Source: Porticoccaceae bacterium
Lineage (GTDB): Bacteria > Pseudomonadota > Gammaproteobacteria > Pseudomonadales > Porticoccaceae
DNA: 64,000 bases
Direction: 5' to 3'
NCBI GenBank assembly: GCA_002702725.1
Contig: PABE01000114.1
Span: 35,843 to 99,842, forward strand
Shown: positions 25,008 through 54,010 of the stretch, piece after piece
Layout: each line of letters starts with the position of its first letter
Numbering within the stretch: position 1 is the stretch's first letter
The notes under the pieces: generated by a model
Database searches by the model: none
Told to the model about the DNA's origin: nothing
Seen by the model: only the letters and a program-made list of their open reading frames with translations
Position numbers and translations under genes: made by a program

Positions 25008-25832
25008 GTGACGATCTCTAGAACACTCGAGCGATGCGTTCAGCGCCCTCTACGGCGCGGTGTTTCACGCGATGGTGTGTTATCCGGTTCTGGCTATACG
25101 TTTTCAGACTCGGACGCCGAAGCCTACGTCACATTGGTCGAAACCGCAGACGGAGAAACGCTTGAAAATGGCGTTAAAGAGGCAATCGACAATTTTGTCG
25201 CCGGGTGCAAGACGGATGGGATTTGGGCGGATATCAACGCTGCGGTGATACTTGCAGGGGCAAGAACCCTAACAGGGGCACTGGTGCCGTTGAAGGGAAC
25301 CGCACCGACGAACGTCAACTTTGTCAGTGGCGACTATAGCCGCACCAACGGATTGACTGGTAATGGGAGCACGAAATACCTGAACAGCAATCGAGCTGCC
25401 GATGCCGATGACTTCGAGGATATGCACCTGTCGGTATACGTCACAGGCAGCAGGGAAACCGGAGTCGGCGGTTACATTGGCGGTTCTGCATCATCGCCGC
25501 ACGCGGTGCTTGGTAACGCAACGGGGTTTAGAGCGCGAGTCAACTCGGCGACACTGAGAACACTTGGCACTGGAACAACAGTCCCTAGCTGTATCGCTGT
25601 TAGCCGTCCCAATGCTGCAGGCTATGACTGGTGTGGCCTTGGCCAATCGGGAAATCAAGTAGACGCGAGAGTCGGCGGGGAGACTGGAGACATCACAGTT
25701 TTTGCCCGTGGCGGAGCGTCGCTTTCCGCGTGTCGACTAGCGTTCTACTCAATTGGATCGGCGACGACGCTGGCTGACTTAGACTCGCGGATTGCAACTC
25801 TCGTTTCAGCAATAGGGACGGCACTGGCATGA
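25008..25832 (+). CDS. hypothetical virion-associated protein
   Basis: 274-aa ORF with a GTG start. G/T/S-rich and likely beta-rich. Confidence 0.45.
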   Translation: MTISRTLERCVQRPLRRGVSRDGVLSGSGYTFSDSDAEAYVTLVETADGETLENGVKEAIDNFVAGCKTDGIWADINAAVILAGARTLTGALVPLKGTAPTNVNFVSGDYSRTNGLTGNGSTKYLNSNRAADADDFEDMHLSVYVTGSRETGVGGYIGGSASSPHAVLGNATGFRARVNSATLRTLGTGTTVPSCIAVSRPNAAGYDWCGLGQSGNQVDARVGGETGDITVFARGGASLSACRLAFYSIGSATTLADLDSRIATLVSAIGTALA

Positions 25833-29665: not shown

Positions 29666-31089
29666 CCATCAAGATAACCTACGGCGATGCCAAGATCTGG
29701 AGCGCCGACCTTCTCATCAGTGCTGGCGCTCAACCAAGTCGATTTATCCTTGAAGGTGATATCCAAGGTGATCTCGATGATGTCGCGCCGATTCTCAGAA
29801 TTGACGATGGCGACACAGAGAGGATATTCGCAGACACTAGACTTCTGTCGATTGAGAACCGGCCATGTAGGTGGGGCGACGAGCTTTCATCCTATTACGT
29901 CATTGAAGATAAGAGATGGAAGTGGTGGGACATATTTGCTTCCTGTGACTACAACCGCCTGAAGTGCGACGGAGACAGGTATAACGACGCAACGTGTGGC
30001 GAGATCTTCGGAGATCTGCTGACACTCGCTGGCGAGGCGATCTTTGATGTCGGCAGCGCTAGTGACGCAATCTATCCGGTACTGCACTATGACGAGCAGG
30101 TTCCTGTTGGCAGGATGCTTCAGGACCTCTGTGAGCTGACAAAGCATACCATCGGATTCAAGGAAGATGGCAGCGTTAAGGTTTTTCAGCTAGGCCAGGG
30201 AAAGCTCCCGAATATCTCTGCGATCAAGAGTTTTCGACAATACACCAACCGAACAATCAATGACTTCAAAGTCATATCCAAGCCCACTCTTTTTGAGAGC
30301 CTGATCTCTGTCAACCCAGTTGGGATGGAATCAACTGGCGAGATCGTTGATCTGGATTCCGTCAGCTACAAGCCTGCTGCGGGATGGAGCGGAGAATGGC
30401 CAGGGCAGTTTAGCGGAGTTGCCTCTGCTTCTCAGTGGCTGGCGAACAAAAGCGTTTACCGACTGTTTGAGCCAAGCAGTGTGGAGAACGACCAGACGGC
30501 AGCTGCGTTCCCGCTAGATGGTCTGGAAATACTGGAAAACGGCGATTGCGCATATAACAGTATGAGAGGAGGAGTTTGCATTGACTATGTCATTGGCGAA
30601 TTCTGGCCTGAGTACCACCGAGGGGATGTCGAGACATCTGCAACAGACCACTGGTTTGGCGATGTTTCCGTAAAGGAAAACATCTTTCAGTTCGGCAGGC
30701 CTGTATTCAAGGTTGATGACGGCGCCGTATCTGAGCCAGTGCTGAAGATCAAGGCTTGGCATCGGCAGCGAGATGACGCCAATGGAGACTTCATTTTCGA
30801 GAGCCTTGGAAACGGTCCTGTTCGCGAGGCTTCTTGGGTTCAGCCTGTTGTCATCCACGATGAAGGGACAAATCTGACTGATGTTGGGAATCAGCTGACT
30901 GAATACAGGCGGATCTGCATCCAAGAGTCCAATATCGACACATCGATGGTTGTTTATGACGGGATCCAGAGTGTCGAAGTCAATGGAAATGTAAGGTCAA
31001 TTCGGCACAAGCTCAATCTGACAGCAAGCTCTGGTGGCGCTGACACGGAAGTTTACATAGGCGATGGCTGGGACGGCCTGCAGGTATGA
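29662..31089 (+). CDS. hypothetical large structural protein (475 aa; hub- or fibre-like by size)
   Basis: ATGA overlap. Its Arg codons are mostly AGA/AGG. Confidence 0.5.
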   Translation: MTIKITYGDAKIWSADLLISAGAQPSRFILEGDIQGDLDDVAPILRIDDGDTERIFADTRLLSIENRPCRWGDELSSYYVIEDKRWKWWDIFASCDYNRLKCDGDRYNDATCGEIFGDLLTLAGEAIFDVGSASDAIYPVLHYDEQVPVGRMLQDLCELTKHTIGFKEDGSVKVFQLGQGKLPNISAIKSFRQYTNRTINDFKVISKPTLFESLISVNPVGMESTGEIVDLDSVSYKPAAGWSGEWPGQFSGVASASQWLANKSVYRLFEPSSVENDQTAAAFPLDGLEILENGDCAYNSMRGGVCIDYVIGEFWPEYHRGDVETSATDHWFGDVSVKENIFQFGRPVFKVDDGAVSEPVLKIKAWHRQRDDANGDFIFESLGNGPVREASWVQPVVIHDEGTNLTDVGNQLTEYRRICIQESNIDTSMVVYDGIQSVEVNGNVRSIRHKLNLTASSGGADTEVYIGDGWDGLQV

Positions 31090-50326: not shown

Positions 50327-51177
50327 GATGATGAACTTCCTCTCTCACAATGTTATATGCGCAAAGCCCAAAGTGACGCCAATCAGATGGTGGAATTTTC
50401 TGAAGGGGATGAGTCGTTGCAGGTTTTTTCCATTGAGGGAAGTGAATATGGATTGTTGTGCAGAGTAGCACGGCAAGATGAATCACCAGTTGCGTGACTT
50501 CCGAGAGGAGCCACAAACAAACTGAATCTTCCCTTCTTCCATGGAGAATTCCTCAGCGGCGCGAACCAAGAATCTATCCCAGTGTTGACTCATGCCAGCA
50601 GAAAACTCAGTTAGAACACACATCATTAACGACTCAACCATCGCATTCGAGTGTCCACCCTCTGAAAGACTTCCTGCCTTGCGCGCGAATTTTTTTCAGT
50701 GCATTGAGTGATTTGCAGAAGAGAGTCGGTCTGTTGCGCGCGCAAAGAGTCGTTTGAGTAGCAAAGTCGCTGAAGGGTTCATACGCGCGCACCCTGGGCC
50801 TTAGTGGGGCGGCCAAGATGGCAAAAGACACTCTCGCGTAGTACCAAAAGCCGGGGTTTCCCCTCGACACCGAAGCAAAGCTAGCGTATTTCAGCCCTTA
50901 TAGGTGCAGTACATCAACTGTTATCACCGTCCGGTAACTGCGCGTCCACTAGCTCGTCGGCCTGCTAACCCAGTGCGCCACTCATAGCTTAGGAGCCTTG
51001 GCGTAGTGATGCCTACGTTTCCGACTCGGTCGCTTACTTGCCATCGCTGACAAGTGGACTTCCACAGATTGGGTACAACGCTCAAACGAGTGCCCCGGCA
51101 AGCACGCCTGTGGCGTATTACACTCGCCGGTTGCAGCCTGACATTTGGGATCAGGCGCCCATGTCTGACATGCGGGT

Positions 51178-52492: not shown

Positions 52493-52744
52493 TTATCTGG
52501 TGTTTTTTGGTGCGTACTCGCGCAGCTCGGAATCTGCGTATCCTTCGTTGTCTAGCCACCATCCATACATGTCGTTGTCGCAGCGAAGGAACGGTGGCTT
52601 TTCGTCGTGACTGTCTCGCTCTCTTTCGATGTACCAGTCAAAGCCGACGCTGTTCCACCAGTTTTGCCAGCGGTGGATGGCATTTTCCAGTTCTCTTCTT
52701 CTTGGCTTACGCCTGAACAGTCTCGAAAGCATCCGCCTACCCAA
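52493..52744 (-). CDS. hypothetical Trp-rich protein (83 aa)
   Basis: ORF only. Confidence 0.4.
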   Translation of the reverse strand: MGRRMLSRLFRRKPRRRELENAIHRWQNWWNSVGFDWYIERERDSHDEKPPFLRCDNDMYGWWLDNEGYADSELREYAPKNTR

Positions 52745-53222
52745 TCAAGTGCGAAATCCGATTGCCAGCATCTACCTGCTCATGCTGATATCGACACTGC
52801 ATCAAGTACGCATCCTCAGGCGAATCCTCGTAGAAGTCCCTTAGGATTGAGATCGCTCTGAAGCCAAGCTTCTTGAGGAACAGTTGTGCTGGAAGGTTTT
52901 TCTCGCGAACCTCCAGCATGATTCGGTTTCTGCGGTCGGCGCTGAGCTTTCCCTGAAGCTTTGCGATCATCGACCTGCCAACCCCATTATTGCGGTTTCC
53001 TGGCAGCACAGCCAAATTCAGTAAGTGAAGCCTGTTTTTGTGCAGCTCGTAGATCATGAACCCGATGACTTGTTCATCCTCTTCGGACACCATGCCGATG
53101 CAGTTTCTTTGGCGAAGGCAGCGGATGAACTCCTCTTCGCTCCATGGAAACTCAAAGCTTTGGTTCTCGATTTCCAAGACCTGCGGCATGTCCCGACGAA
53201 TCATCCAGCGAATGTGTGCCAC
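52737..53222 (-). CDS. GNAT N-acetyltransferase (RimI-like)
   Basis: Motifs VLEIENQSFEFPWSEEEF, LLNLAVLPGNRNNGVGRSMI and LEVREKNLPAQLFLKKLGF. Confidence 0.75.
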   Translation of the reverse strand: MAHIRWMIRRDMPQVLEIENQSFEFPWSEEEFIRCLRQRNCIGMVSEEDEQVIGFMIYELHKNRLHLLNLAVLPGNRNNGVGRSMIAKLQGKLSADRRNRIMLEVREKNLPAQLFLKKLGFRAISILRDFYEDSPEDAYLMQCRYQHEQVDAGNRISHLIG

Positions 53223-53257: not shown

Positions 53258-53446
53258 TTACTTGCCGTCATCGGTAGGGTTTTTCTTAATTGCCTCAAGA
53301 ACCTCATCGAGGTTGTACTTGTTAAAACGACCGATTCTGTAGAACGGTATCTTTCCGTCGCTTGCAAGTCTGCTGATGCAGTTTGGAGTGACTCCGAGCT
53401 TTTCAGCAATTTCGTTTCTACTGAGAAGATCTTCCGCTGGATTCAT
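53258..53446 (-). CDS. excisionase-family / MerR-like HTH protein (62 aa)
   Basis: LSRNEIAEKLGVTPNCISRLASDGKIPFYRIGRFNKYNLDEV is the Xis/AlpA-type pattern. GGAGG lies upstream of the ATG. Confidence 0.65.
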   Translation of the reverse strand: MNPAEDLLSRNEIAEKLGVTPNCISRLASDGKIPFYRIGRFNKYNLDEVLEAIKKNPTDDGK

Positions 53447-53498
53447 GCTAGGTCCTCCACAATCTATATGCGCAAACCTGATCGTCCGTGAACGAATG

Positions 53499-53578
53499 TG
53501 AGAAGATTTGGGAAGATGTGGGAAAATATGAGAAGATGTGAGAAAACTTGAGAAAATCTGGGAATGGATCGGAATGTC
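53499..53578. repeat. eight direct repeats of TG(A/G)GAA(A/G)AT(N) with an exact 10-bp period
   Basis: The units are tgagaagatt, tgggaagatg, tgggaaaata, tgagaagatg, tgagaaaact, tgagaaaatc, tgggaatgga and tcggaatgtc. Confidence 0.9.
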
Positions 53579-53638
53579 GCGATGTATGCAATGTTTCGTG
53601 GCAAAACCGAAACTCGCCCGAAATCTATATGCGCCAAG

Positions 53639-54010
53639 TCATAATCTCTTGACCATGTCTGCTGCTTTTTCGAGCAAGATGACTCGCGGAGCTACCGATG
53701 CCTTCAGTGCTTGGCTACCACCGATCATTGCTGGGGTGACAAGCATTACAGCGACCATGAGTGGTGCAATGATGATCGGCTCCATTTGGTTTTCCTTGAT
53801 GGCTTTCCACTTCCAGATCGGAACAAAAACCAGCACAAGGATTGCAAATAAGCAAGTCAAGAACAAAAGCATCCCTGACCAAAACATCCAAGAAACGTAC
53901 TCCTGCGCCACTAACGGCGCCTGGTCCATGACAAATCCACCAGCGTCATTCGCTGCGGACTCGACTGCATCCAAGTATCCGTTGATTCTTTGCTTGATCT
54001 CTTCGTCCAT
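53639..54010 (-). CDS. two-TM membrane protein (123 aa)
   Basis: Hydrophobic segments WMFWSGMLLFLTCLFAILVLVFV and IIIAPLMVAVMLVTPAMI. Confidence 0.55.
   Translation of the reverse strand: MDEEIKQRINGYLDAVESAANDAGGFVMDQAPLVAQEYVSWMFWSGMLLFLTCLFAILVLVFVPIWKWKAIKENQMEPIIIAPLMVAVMLVTPAMIGGSQALKASVAPRVILLEKAADMVKRL

Follow-up and report, generated by a model that had tools for sequence, protein, structure and literature searches.

An exact 10-bp repeat array beside a small winged-helix gene of a marine phage: a candidate operator for transcription control

What does an array of eight direct repeats in exact 10-bp register do in front of a small helix-turn-helix (HTH) gene? The array lies in a stretch of 64,000 nucleotides, here called the window, which is C155:35843-99842. 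C155 (100,062 bp) is the longest contig of a 165-contig marine metagenome-assembled genome (MAG) of a Porticoccaceae bacterium, and it looks like a phage of about 100 kb. An earlier note on this DNA had taken the array for the binding site of a small excisionase-like protein, or of an initiator. Our analysis suggested, with a probability of roughly 55%, that the array is a cooperative cis-acting operator whose predicted binder is the adjacent 62-aa protein, and that it serves transcription control and not excision. The array and this protein represent a known kind of switch, not a new kind. The two main features are as follows.

53495..53578, minus strand: 10-bp array of eight contiguous units, consensus TTCYCAnATy (TGRGAARATn on the plus strand, frame 53499-53578)
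53258..53446, minus strand: gene of the 62-aa HTH_17 winged-helix protein, the first gene past the array and the candidate array binder

The units on the plus strand (53499-53578) are tgagaagatt, tgggaagatg, tgggaaaata, tgagaagatg, tgagaaaact, tgagaaaatc, tgggaatgga and tcggaatgtc. In minus-strand order they read TTCCGATCCA, TTCCCAGATT, TTCTCAAGTT, TTCTCACATC, TTCTCATATT, TTCCCACATC, TTCCCAAATC and TTCTCACATT. Tandem Repeats Finder detected them at period 10 (53495-53557, 6.3 copies, score 63) and at period 20 (53496-53554, 3.0 copies, 82% matches, score 83), and a repeat search gave seven copies with spacings of 10, 10, 10, 10, 10 and 10. The self-match at lag 10 was 51/70 in the 80-bp frame, against a window mean of 17.4 (standard deviation 4.0) and a maximum of 39 in 200 window shuffles, which were first-order and approximately dinucleotide-preserving. 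With a weight matrix built from the array units, seven units were strong (10.8-13.8 bits each, top 0.01% of the window's 10-mers), and the distal eighth unit, tcggaatgtc, was weak (5.0 bits). The exact word TGRGAARAT occurs six times in the 64-kb window, five times in the array and once inside the HTH gene 77 bp away. A genome-wide scan found one such cluster in the window and two in the whole 3.56-Mb assembly. The claim of eight direct repeats in exact register was thus confirmed by the sequence itself, by Tandem Repeats Finder, by the self-match and by the weight matrix. The array occupies a 192-bp intergenic gap and stands 52 bp from the start codon of the 62-aa gene.

The register had also been read to mean that all sites lie on one face of the helix. 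The exact 10-bp register holds, and the single face does so only in part: as the period is 10.0 bp and the helical repeat about 10.5 bp, each site is rotated by about -17 degrees relative to the one before, which makes about 120 degrees over the array. Such a slow spiral of sites would fit a superhelical wrap or a wrapped filament better than one flat face.

The 62-aa protein is a true HTH_17 winged helix, as the Xis/MerR-type assignment had proposed. Its match to Pfam HTH_17 (PF12728), over residues 7-56, scored 38.1 bits (cut-off 27, E 1.9e-9), and a six-frame search gave 37.3 bits. Its gene was the only HTH_17 match on C155. The window is made up of a plus-strand virion arm and a minus-strand early arm, and the 62-aa protein was the only recognisable DNA-binding protein found in the latter. 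It was assigned to PHROG 66 (excisionase/regulator); the Phage_Cox match was weak (17.8 bits, below the cut-off). The AlphaFold2 model, built from the single sequence, reached a pLDDT (predicted local distance difference test) of 84.2. It shows a beta-alpha-alpha-beta-beta-alpha winged helix (strands 7-9, 35-38 and 41-45; helices 10-17, 21-30 and 46-55) with no coiled-coil dimerisation or effector domain. The three top Foldseek matches were Pukovnik Xis (4j2n), BldC on smeA DNA (6ama, 33% identity) and RdfS (8dgl), with probabilities of 0.98-1.0, template-modelling (TM) scores of 0.53-0.71 and E-values of 0.016-0.09. They were followed by terminase small-subunit (gpNu1-type) DNA-binding domains, RacA, the pSK1 Par domain (8csh) and TubR. 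Over the whole list the probability was 0.96-1.0 and the E-values were weak (0.016-0.3), because the domain is small (about 55 aligned residues). In a phmmer search of PDB, BldC (6ama) came second behind a chance match to a dehydratase, with a non-significant E of 0.26. An arginine of the 62-aa protein aligns with Arg30 in the recognition helix of BldC, which contacts guanine (PMC5859096). The binder of the array would thus most likely be the 62-aa HTH_17 product.

If the array is an operator, does the same unit occur elsewhere? The genome-wide scan found a single further array in the assembly, at C137:24538-24617, with eight units, a weak ninth and the same consensus. When the 16 units of both arrays were pooled, they gave TTCYCAnATy, in which TTC.CA is nearly invariant. 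The array on C137 (array 2) separates divergent features and lies between divergent promoter-like words.

C137, HTH-76 side: gene of a 76-aa, weakly HTH-like protein (HTH-76), preceded by CTTGGCGCATATAGA
C137, head-operon side: 414-aa gene and major head protein gene (scaffold/major-head operon), preceded by GCGCATACAA

An extracytoplasmic-function (ECF)-type sigma factor and a 474-aa protein with two resolvase domains are encoded near array 2, the latter about 600 bp from it. This protein (C137:22506-23930; L008 7506-8930) carries two tandem resolvase catalytic domains, an unusual architecture, and has no recombinase or zinc-ribbon domains; its gene adjoins the ECF sigma gene and array 2.

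The two contigs belong to mosaic sister phages. The last 84 nt of C137 (41364-41447) are identical to C155:60908-60991 (window 25066-25149), and in the ENA contig NODE_474316 (80,752 bp) C137 continues as C155, which is present there from 60908 to the end. Two loci of this contig, L076 and L052, are 100% identical to C137 and C155, respectively. The alternative, C155-type junction was present on 8 contigs from independent samples. Phage A therefore has C155:1-60907 as its left arm and phage B has C137, and their right arms of about 39 kb are identical. The common arm holds fibre genes, a polyvalent protein, the VIPR array, the early arm, the 62-aa gene and the array in the window (array 1). 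Phage B has array 1, the 62-aa gene and, in its own left arm, array 2. Phage A has array 1 with the 62-aa gene but lacks HTH-76, as its junction on 8 independent contigs demonstrates. BLASTP found no match between the 62-aa protein and HTH-76, and the AlphaFold2 model of HTH-76 was too poor for comparison (pLDDT 65.5). Since the 62-aa protein is common to both phages, one protein can serve both arrays despite their unrelated HTH neighbours. That the unit recurs in a second array, and that the sister phage with this array also encodes the 62-aa protein, supports the operator reading. It had been suggested to look for the repeat near any attachment (att) site elsewhere in the genome; it does recur, on C137.

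The array is also coupled to promoter-like words. A 16-nt direct repeat, TTKGCGCATATAGATT on the minus strand, brackets it at 53461-53476 and 53622-53637.

53461..53476, minus strand: proximal promoter-like word TTTGCGCATATAGATT, 25 nt past the last unit and separated by 2 nt from GGAGG, the Shine-Dalgarno sequence of the HTH gene; contains TATAGA
53622..53637, minus strand: distal promoter-like word TTGGCGCATATAGATT, directed into the array, its start 1 base behind the upstream gene's stop codon
53488..53493, minus strand: weak -35-like TTCACG, 18 nt upstream of TATAGA
30548-30557 (plus strand), 50353-50362 (minus), 53464-53473 (minus) and 53625-53634 (minus): GCGCATATA(A/G) sites of the window
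10925, 21226, 24519, 24629 and 37093: GCGCATATA(A/G) sites of C137

A promoter TTCACG-N18-TATAGA had been proposed for the 62-aa gene. Both hexamers are present, but only 8 of the 12 positions (4/6 per hexamer) agree with the consensus, and a strict sigma-70 scan called nothing at the array region. The recurrent GCGCATATA(G/A) word is the better description of the promoter. The word family GCGCATATA(A/G)-7..9 nt-GAGAGGAGGA stands before genes on both phage contigs, and the leader behind it is conserved as GCGCATATAAC-A-n-T-A-y-GAGAGGAGGA. No -35 element conserved among the GCGCATATA(A/G) sites of C155 and C137 was found, and the word was not enriched in host contigs. The GCGCATAYA word may thus be a phage-specific, -35-independent promoter. 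All four words that flank the arrays are deviant (GCGCATATAG three times and GCGCATACAA once), and the five sites away from the arrays are GCGCATATAA. The distal word shares 15 identical bases, CTTGGCGCATATAGA, with the word before the HTH-76 gene, and neither an open reading frame (ORF) nor a Shine-Dalgarno sequence follows it.

The geometry is the same at both arrays. GCGCATA starts 25 nt past the last unit in the window and 15 nt past it on C137, which is one period apart, and it takes register position 2 in both. The TTCYCA strand is in each case the coding strand of the downstream operon. If the start site is taken about 7 nt past TATAGA or TACAAG, the arrays would span about -42 to -121 in the window and about -32 to -105 on C137. 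This phase-lock of the arrays to the promoter-like words supports the operator reading. Scored as an extra array unit, the promoter word reached 3.0 bits in the window and -3.9 bits on C137; this resemblance is weak and we did not use it as evidence. A 6-bp inverted repeat, GTTTCG-N9-CGAAAC, lies at 53593-53613 between the distal word and the array; lacking a T-run, it is no terminator, and its folding is not significant.

A single unit also occurs across the promoter word from each array.

53422..53430, plus strand: isolated exact consensus unit TGAGAAGAT in codons 6-8 of the HTH gene, in array-unit orientation

Its start and the nearest array unit are 77 bp apart, with the proximal word between them, and it is the sole TGRGAARAT outside the array on C155. 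The HTH-76 gene (C137:24464) has TGAGAAGAT in its first codons too, as one of two copies outside the array on that contig. Each array-adjacent HTH gene thus holds one exact TGAGAAGAT within its first ten codons, and these first-codon regions belong to two mutually unrelated proteins. A priori, the probability that an array has such a word no more than 100 bp away is about 6e-3 per locus; the coincidence was noticed post hoc.

How would such an operator work? A winged helix of the Xis/Cox/Apl/BldC type would polymerise head-to-tail on the array, with one protomer per 10-bp unit, and the filament would bend or wrap about 80 bp beside phage-specific GCGCATATAG-type promoters. In phage A the filament would act on the operon of the protein itself, which comprises HTH, GNAT and further genes, from about -42 to -121 of the proximal promoter. 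Transcripts that start at the distal promoter copy would also run through the array, as would upstream read-through, which is possible because no terminator turned up between the array and the stop codon of the 123-aa gene before it. In phage B the same protein would additionally act at array 2, between the divergent HTH-76 and scaffold/major-head operons, and this would tie an early-arm regulator to late genes. As to the sign of regulation, our guess is concentration-dependent autorepression, in which the protein spreads over the promoter to the isolated unit as Apl and Cox do. It might instead be activation from upstream in the manner of Cox at P4 PLL, which the conserved upstream phase allows.

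Several observations weigh against this reading. The isolated units are out of helical phase with the arrays (77 and 79 bp), and the array orientation is opposite relative to the two HTH genes. The GCGCATAYA word is a promoter only by our reading of the sequence, and its closeness to the Shine-Dalgarno sequence would make the leader very short. A search of 5.8 billion proteins for homologues of the 62-aa protein returned only the protein itself. Nine assemblies of the intergenic region were 100% identical, with 0-2 single-nucleotide polymorphisms in the flanks, and are therefore uninformative. The MAG may not be the true host, which would weaken the argument from missing host sites given below. 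Finally, about 45 other genes, mostly of unassigned function, are common to both phages at 100% identity, and an 84/85-aa protein that is 83% identical between phages A and B is a potential binder as well.

The last points lead to the question whether a different phage protein binds the array, with the HTH_17 gene merely its regulated target. The candidates are the unannotated products of the shared 39-kb module and the 84/85-aa protein. Small HTH genes commonly adjoin regulatory regions, and the different orientation of the arrays relative to the two HTH genes would fit such a binder. The 62-aa protein, however, is the only recognisable DNA-binding protein of the early arm, and its fold family is known for exactly such site architecture. 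The 84/85-aa protein is encoded at C155:10080-10334, outside the window, and at C137:20193-20450, in otherwise different left arms. It lacks a DNA-binding signature and any Pfam or PHROG family, and a large protein search returned only its two alleles. We consider a different phage binder unlikely.

Could the array do without a dedicated phage protein, either as intrinsically curved upstream DNA or as a site for a host nucleoid protein or the RNA polymerase alpha subunit? The units hold short phased A-runs. A wedge-model estimate, with approximate parameters, placed the array at about the 95th percentile of the window. This is unremarkable, since many places in the window scored much higher, and the curvature that the helical phasing had led one to look for did not stand out. 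Moreover, the invariant TTC.CA includes G/C pairs that curvature does not need, and the 9-mer recurs singly in both HTH genes, with none in host contigs or relatives. The two-unit site TTCYCA-N4-TTCYCA was absent from 3.42 Mb of host contigs, with no enrichment over other spacings, and no comparable array was found in 200 related genomes, apart from one perfect tandem repeat. These two results suggested that the binder is probably phage-encoded. A host factor as the binder is unlikely if the MAG is the host, and array DNA that acts through curvature or a host protein is, taken together, very improbable.

The earlier note had left room for an initiator, and the array can also be read as an iteron cluster of a replication origin or cis-replication region (crr), with two clusters in the sister phage and flanking transcription that activates the origin. 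In favour of this, the array is the only repeat cluster of its kind, lies between genes in the replication/early arm and has promoter-like words on both sides. P4, with its ori and crr, is a precedent for a genome with two clusters. Iterons are usually 17-22 bp, and contiguous 10-bp units are atypical for them. No AT-rich unwinding region was found (the GC content is 0.39 in the array and 0.48-0.50 in the flanks), and no initiator gene adjoins the array, whose neighbours encode the HTH_17 protein, a GNAT enzyme and a membrane protein. Array 2 stands before head genes and beside regulators. The tight phase lock to the promoter words and the isolated units in the HTH genes fit transcription control better. 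The initiator alternative was thus not borne out, and we regard an origin as very unlikely.

The neighbouring genes bear on the remaining alternatives.

52737..53222, minus strand: GNAT acetyltransferase gene, in the same transcription unit, 35 nt behind the HTH gene
53639..54010, minus strand: 123-aa membrane-protein gene, upstream of the array

The upstream neighbours of the array are membrane and pilin-like genes. The 123-aa protein has one relative, at 38% identity in a non-syntenic context, and a 189-aa neighbour had no match in IMG/VR. The early arm encodes two helicases, two exonucleases, a deoxynucleoside monophosphate kinase, a MazG-like enzyme and a DNA methylase. Profile searches of C155 found no tyrosine integrase (PF00589), resolvase (PF00239), Sigma70_r2 or ParA-type ATPase; matches to PF00589 and PF00239 elsewhere in the assembly were on other contigs only.

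By analogy with the Xis-type proteins, the array could consist of the excisionase (recombination directionality factor, RDF) sites of an attachment region. The HTH_17/Xis fold suits this classical Xis role, as does the 474-aa two-resolvase-domain protein of the sister phage near array 2. An excisionase belongs with a cognate integrase on the same element, and the 100-kb contig with array 1 has neither integrase class. No att-like context was seen. The phage sequence was assembled from many Tara and other ocean samples, and the retrieved contigs ran collinear through the site, with no host junctions seen among them. Both arrays keep a fixed register with promoter words. Excision, as one half of the analogy, was thus not supported, and an excisionase site is extremely improbable.

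A phage without an integrase might persist as a plasmid. The array could then be the centromere-like site of a partition system that lacks a nucleoside triphosphatase (NTPase) or has an unrecognised one, similar to StbA-stbS of R388, pSK1 Par or ParR-parC. Foldseek gave the pSK1 Par DNA-binding domain (8csh) and TubR as well. In ParR-parC, StbA-stbS and pSK1 Par, 8-10 phased direct repeats lie upstream of the binder's gene and carry a wrapped nucleoprotein complex. In contrast, no AAA_31/ParA match was found on C155 or C137 (ALP/ParM was not searched genome-wide). No partition gene adjoins array 1; the next gene is that of the GNAT enzyme, and the context is a regulator-GNAT operon. The protein has only 62 aa and no extra domain, and nothing else points to lysogeny in phage A.

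Arrays of this type elsewhere bear on the same point. The array region had no match among 50,697 phage records, and the pattern of promoter word plus three units had none in viral contigs. In metagenomes, this pattern matched only an unrelated repeated element and a eukaryote-like minisatellite, which we rejected. A scan of IMG/VR for four TGRGAA-N4 units gave 43 loci, many of them perfect minisatellites. The imperfect arrays, with a conserved hexamer and a variable spacer, fell into known context classes.

L016 1837-1892: imperfect 10-bp TTGAGAAG-type array upstream of ParA-ParB
L017 1300-1355 (also L020, L028, L031 and L033): imperfect 10-bp TTGAGAAG-type array upstream of an actin-like ALP gene
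L044 5474-5509 and L047 2683-2738: TTGAGAAG-type array upstream of a gene in TerS position before a gpA-type TerL
L025: imperfect array beside a P4-type integrase
L029 7798-7843: five-unit TTGAGAAnnn array in a divergent region, with an 86-aa HTH_17-like gene on one side and, on the other, an XRE-like gene followed by a large serine integrase

The arrays of L016, the L017 group, L044 and L047 abut strong extended -10 promoters, on contigs unrelated to this phage; they are likely centromere or operator sites, or cos/pac-type sites. The TGAGAA-type arrays directly upstream of ParA-ParB and of the ALP genes speak for a centromere. The region of L029 looks like a Cox/Apl-style switch in an unrelated temperate phage, and we count its array beside an HTH_17-like gene as support for an operator. 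As the 10-bp repeat architecture occurs in several contexts, it does not assign a function by itself; the context does. Array 1 has no partition NTPase, terminase or integrase in its context, only the HTH_17 gene and the promoter words. A centromere-like site is thus highly improbable.

Three further roles were tried and rejected. For a function at the RNA level, the array region had no Rfam match and no stable fold (z-score +0.76), and array 2 would not be transcribed from its flanking words, since these face outward. For a coding role, the 47- and 57-aa ORFs that span the array have neither a Shine-Dalgarno sequence nor relatives. For a VIPR guide target, the guide array (44.1-45.0 kb) gave only chance matches of 7-9 nt to the array region.

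No sigma factor is recognisable in phage A, and that of phage B is of the ECF type. A 147-aa GcrA/sigma-region-4-like HTH protein (PHROG 323; C155:30585-31028, outside the window) has a conserved C-terminal motif of 30 residues (…EKI.VL..R.A.GQ.LWHP.D) in common with a protein of 126 aa from phage B (C137:12406-12786). In the left arm of phage B, L076 (C137:10193-30450) carries several host-like genes. One encodes a 176-aa PCRF/RF-1 domain protein, a release-factor fragment; others encode the DNA polymerase III beta clamp, thymidylate synthase and NAMPT, and there is a phosphoribosyl pyrophosphate (PRPP)-synthase-like gene.

Which known switch does the predicted operator resemble most? The operators of 186 Apl and P2 Cox, like array 1, have a small winged-helix gene by the site and at least 6-7 direct repeats about one turn apart over at least 70 bp. 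The Apl sites are seven direct repeats, spaced by 10-11 bp and placed between pR and pL; Apl binds them cooperatively, requires at least three adjacent sites, bends the DNA and spreads beyond the repeats (PMC7498355). Cox has at least six boxes of 9 bp, with a spacing of 10-11 bp, protects about 70 bp or more and forms a left-handed filament; the orientation of the boxes decides between repression (Pc) and activation (P4 PLL) (PMC3936717). Cooperativity, bending, spreading, orientation dependence and autoregulation, which belong to Apl and Cox (PMC7498355, PMC3936717), are predicted for the array here. Unlike in those systems, the eight units are contiguous at exactly 10.0 bp and stand upstream of a promoter word, not between face-to-face promoters: both words in the window point one way, and no immunity repressor gene lies across the array. 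This phage has neither an immunity repressor nor an integrase, the Phage_Cox match is below the cut-off, and the protein lacks a long C-terminal oligomerisation tail.

The BldC protein of Streptomyces (MerR-like, HTH_17; 6ama/6amk) is, like the 62-aa protein, a stand-alone winged HTH of 60-70 aa, and the two share 33% identity in the structural alignment. At promoters, BldC assembles head-to-tail on 2-4 direct repeats that are spaced by one turn; it regulates transcription only and takes no part in recombination (PMC5859096). Its sites are repeats of AATTnnnn(C), whereas there are eight of TGRGAARATn here, and it is a cellular developmental regulator and not a phage protein. An Xis-type winged HTH in a non-integrating phage is Gp36 of the lytic mycobacteriophage D29: this Xis homologue binds two clusters of direct repeats, at separate genome locations, and represses the early and late genes downstream (PMC12266134). 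The Gp36 repeats are GC-rich (GCGGC), number 2-4 and are irregularly spaced by 15-19 nt, with no contiguous 10-bp array. Lambda Xis, Pukovnik Xis and RdfS have the same fold as our model, and proteins of the Xis/RdfS type form head-to-tail micro-filaments on phased repeats (PMC11963761). Those proteins act at att sites with an integrase, unlike the protein here.

A wider scenario seems quite unlikely. The array with its 62-aa protein may be a portable 'filament operator' cassette, traded between mosaic marine phages at conserved promoter words, so that one early winged HTH gates the late head operon of any structural module it becomes joined to. Or the pair may be a minimal NTPase-less segregation or anchoring system through which a 100-kb phage without an integrase persists as an episome.

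In conclusion, the understanding of this class of switch is unchanged by the finding. The 62-aa protein, its putative 80-bp operator, a second one in a mosaic sister phage and a defined, phage-specific promoter-like word form a clean case that lends itself to experiments, in a marine phage that is abundant and uncultured. Were the reading confirmed, it would show how one regulator comes to be wired to different structural modules when an operator cassette moves. It would also carry the idea from BldC and D29 Gp36, that winged helices of the Xis type act generally as filament-forming regulators of transcription and not only as excisionases, over to a phage that does not integrate and whose host lineage is poorly studied.

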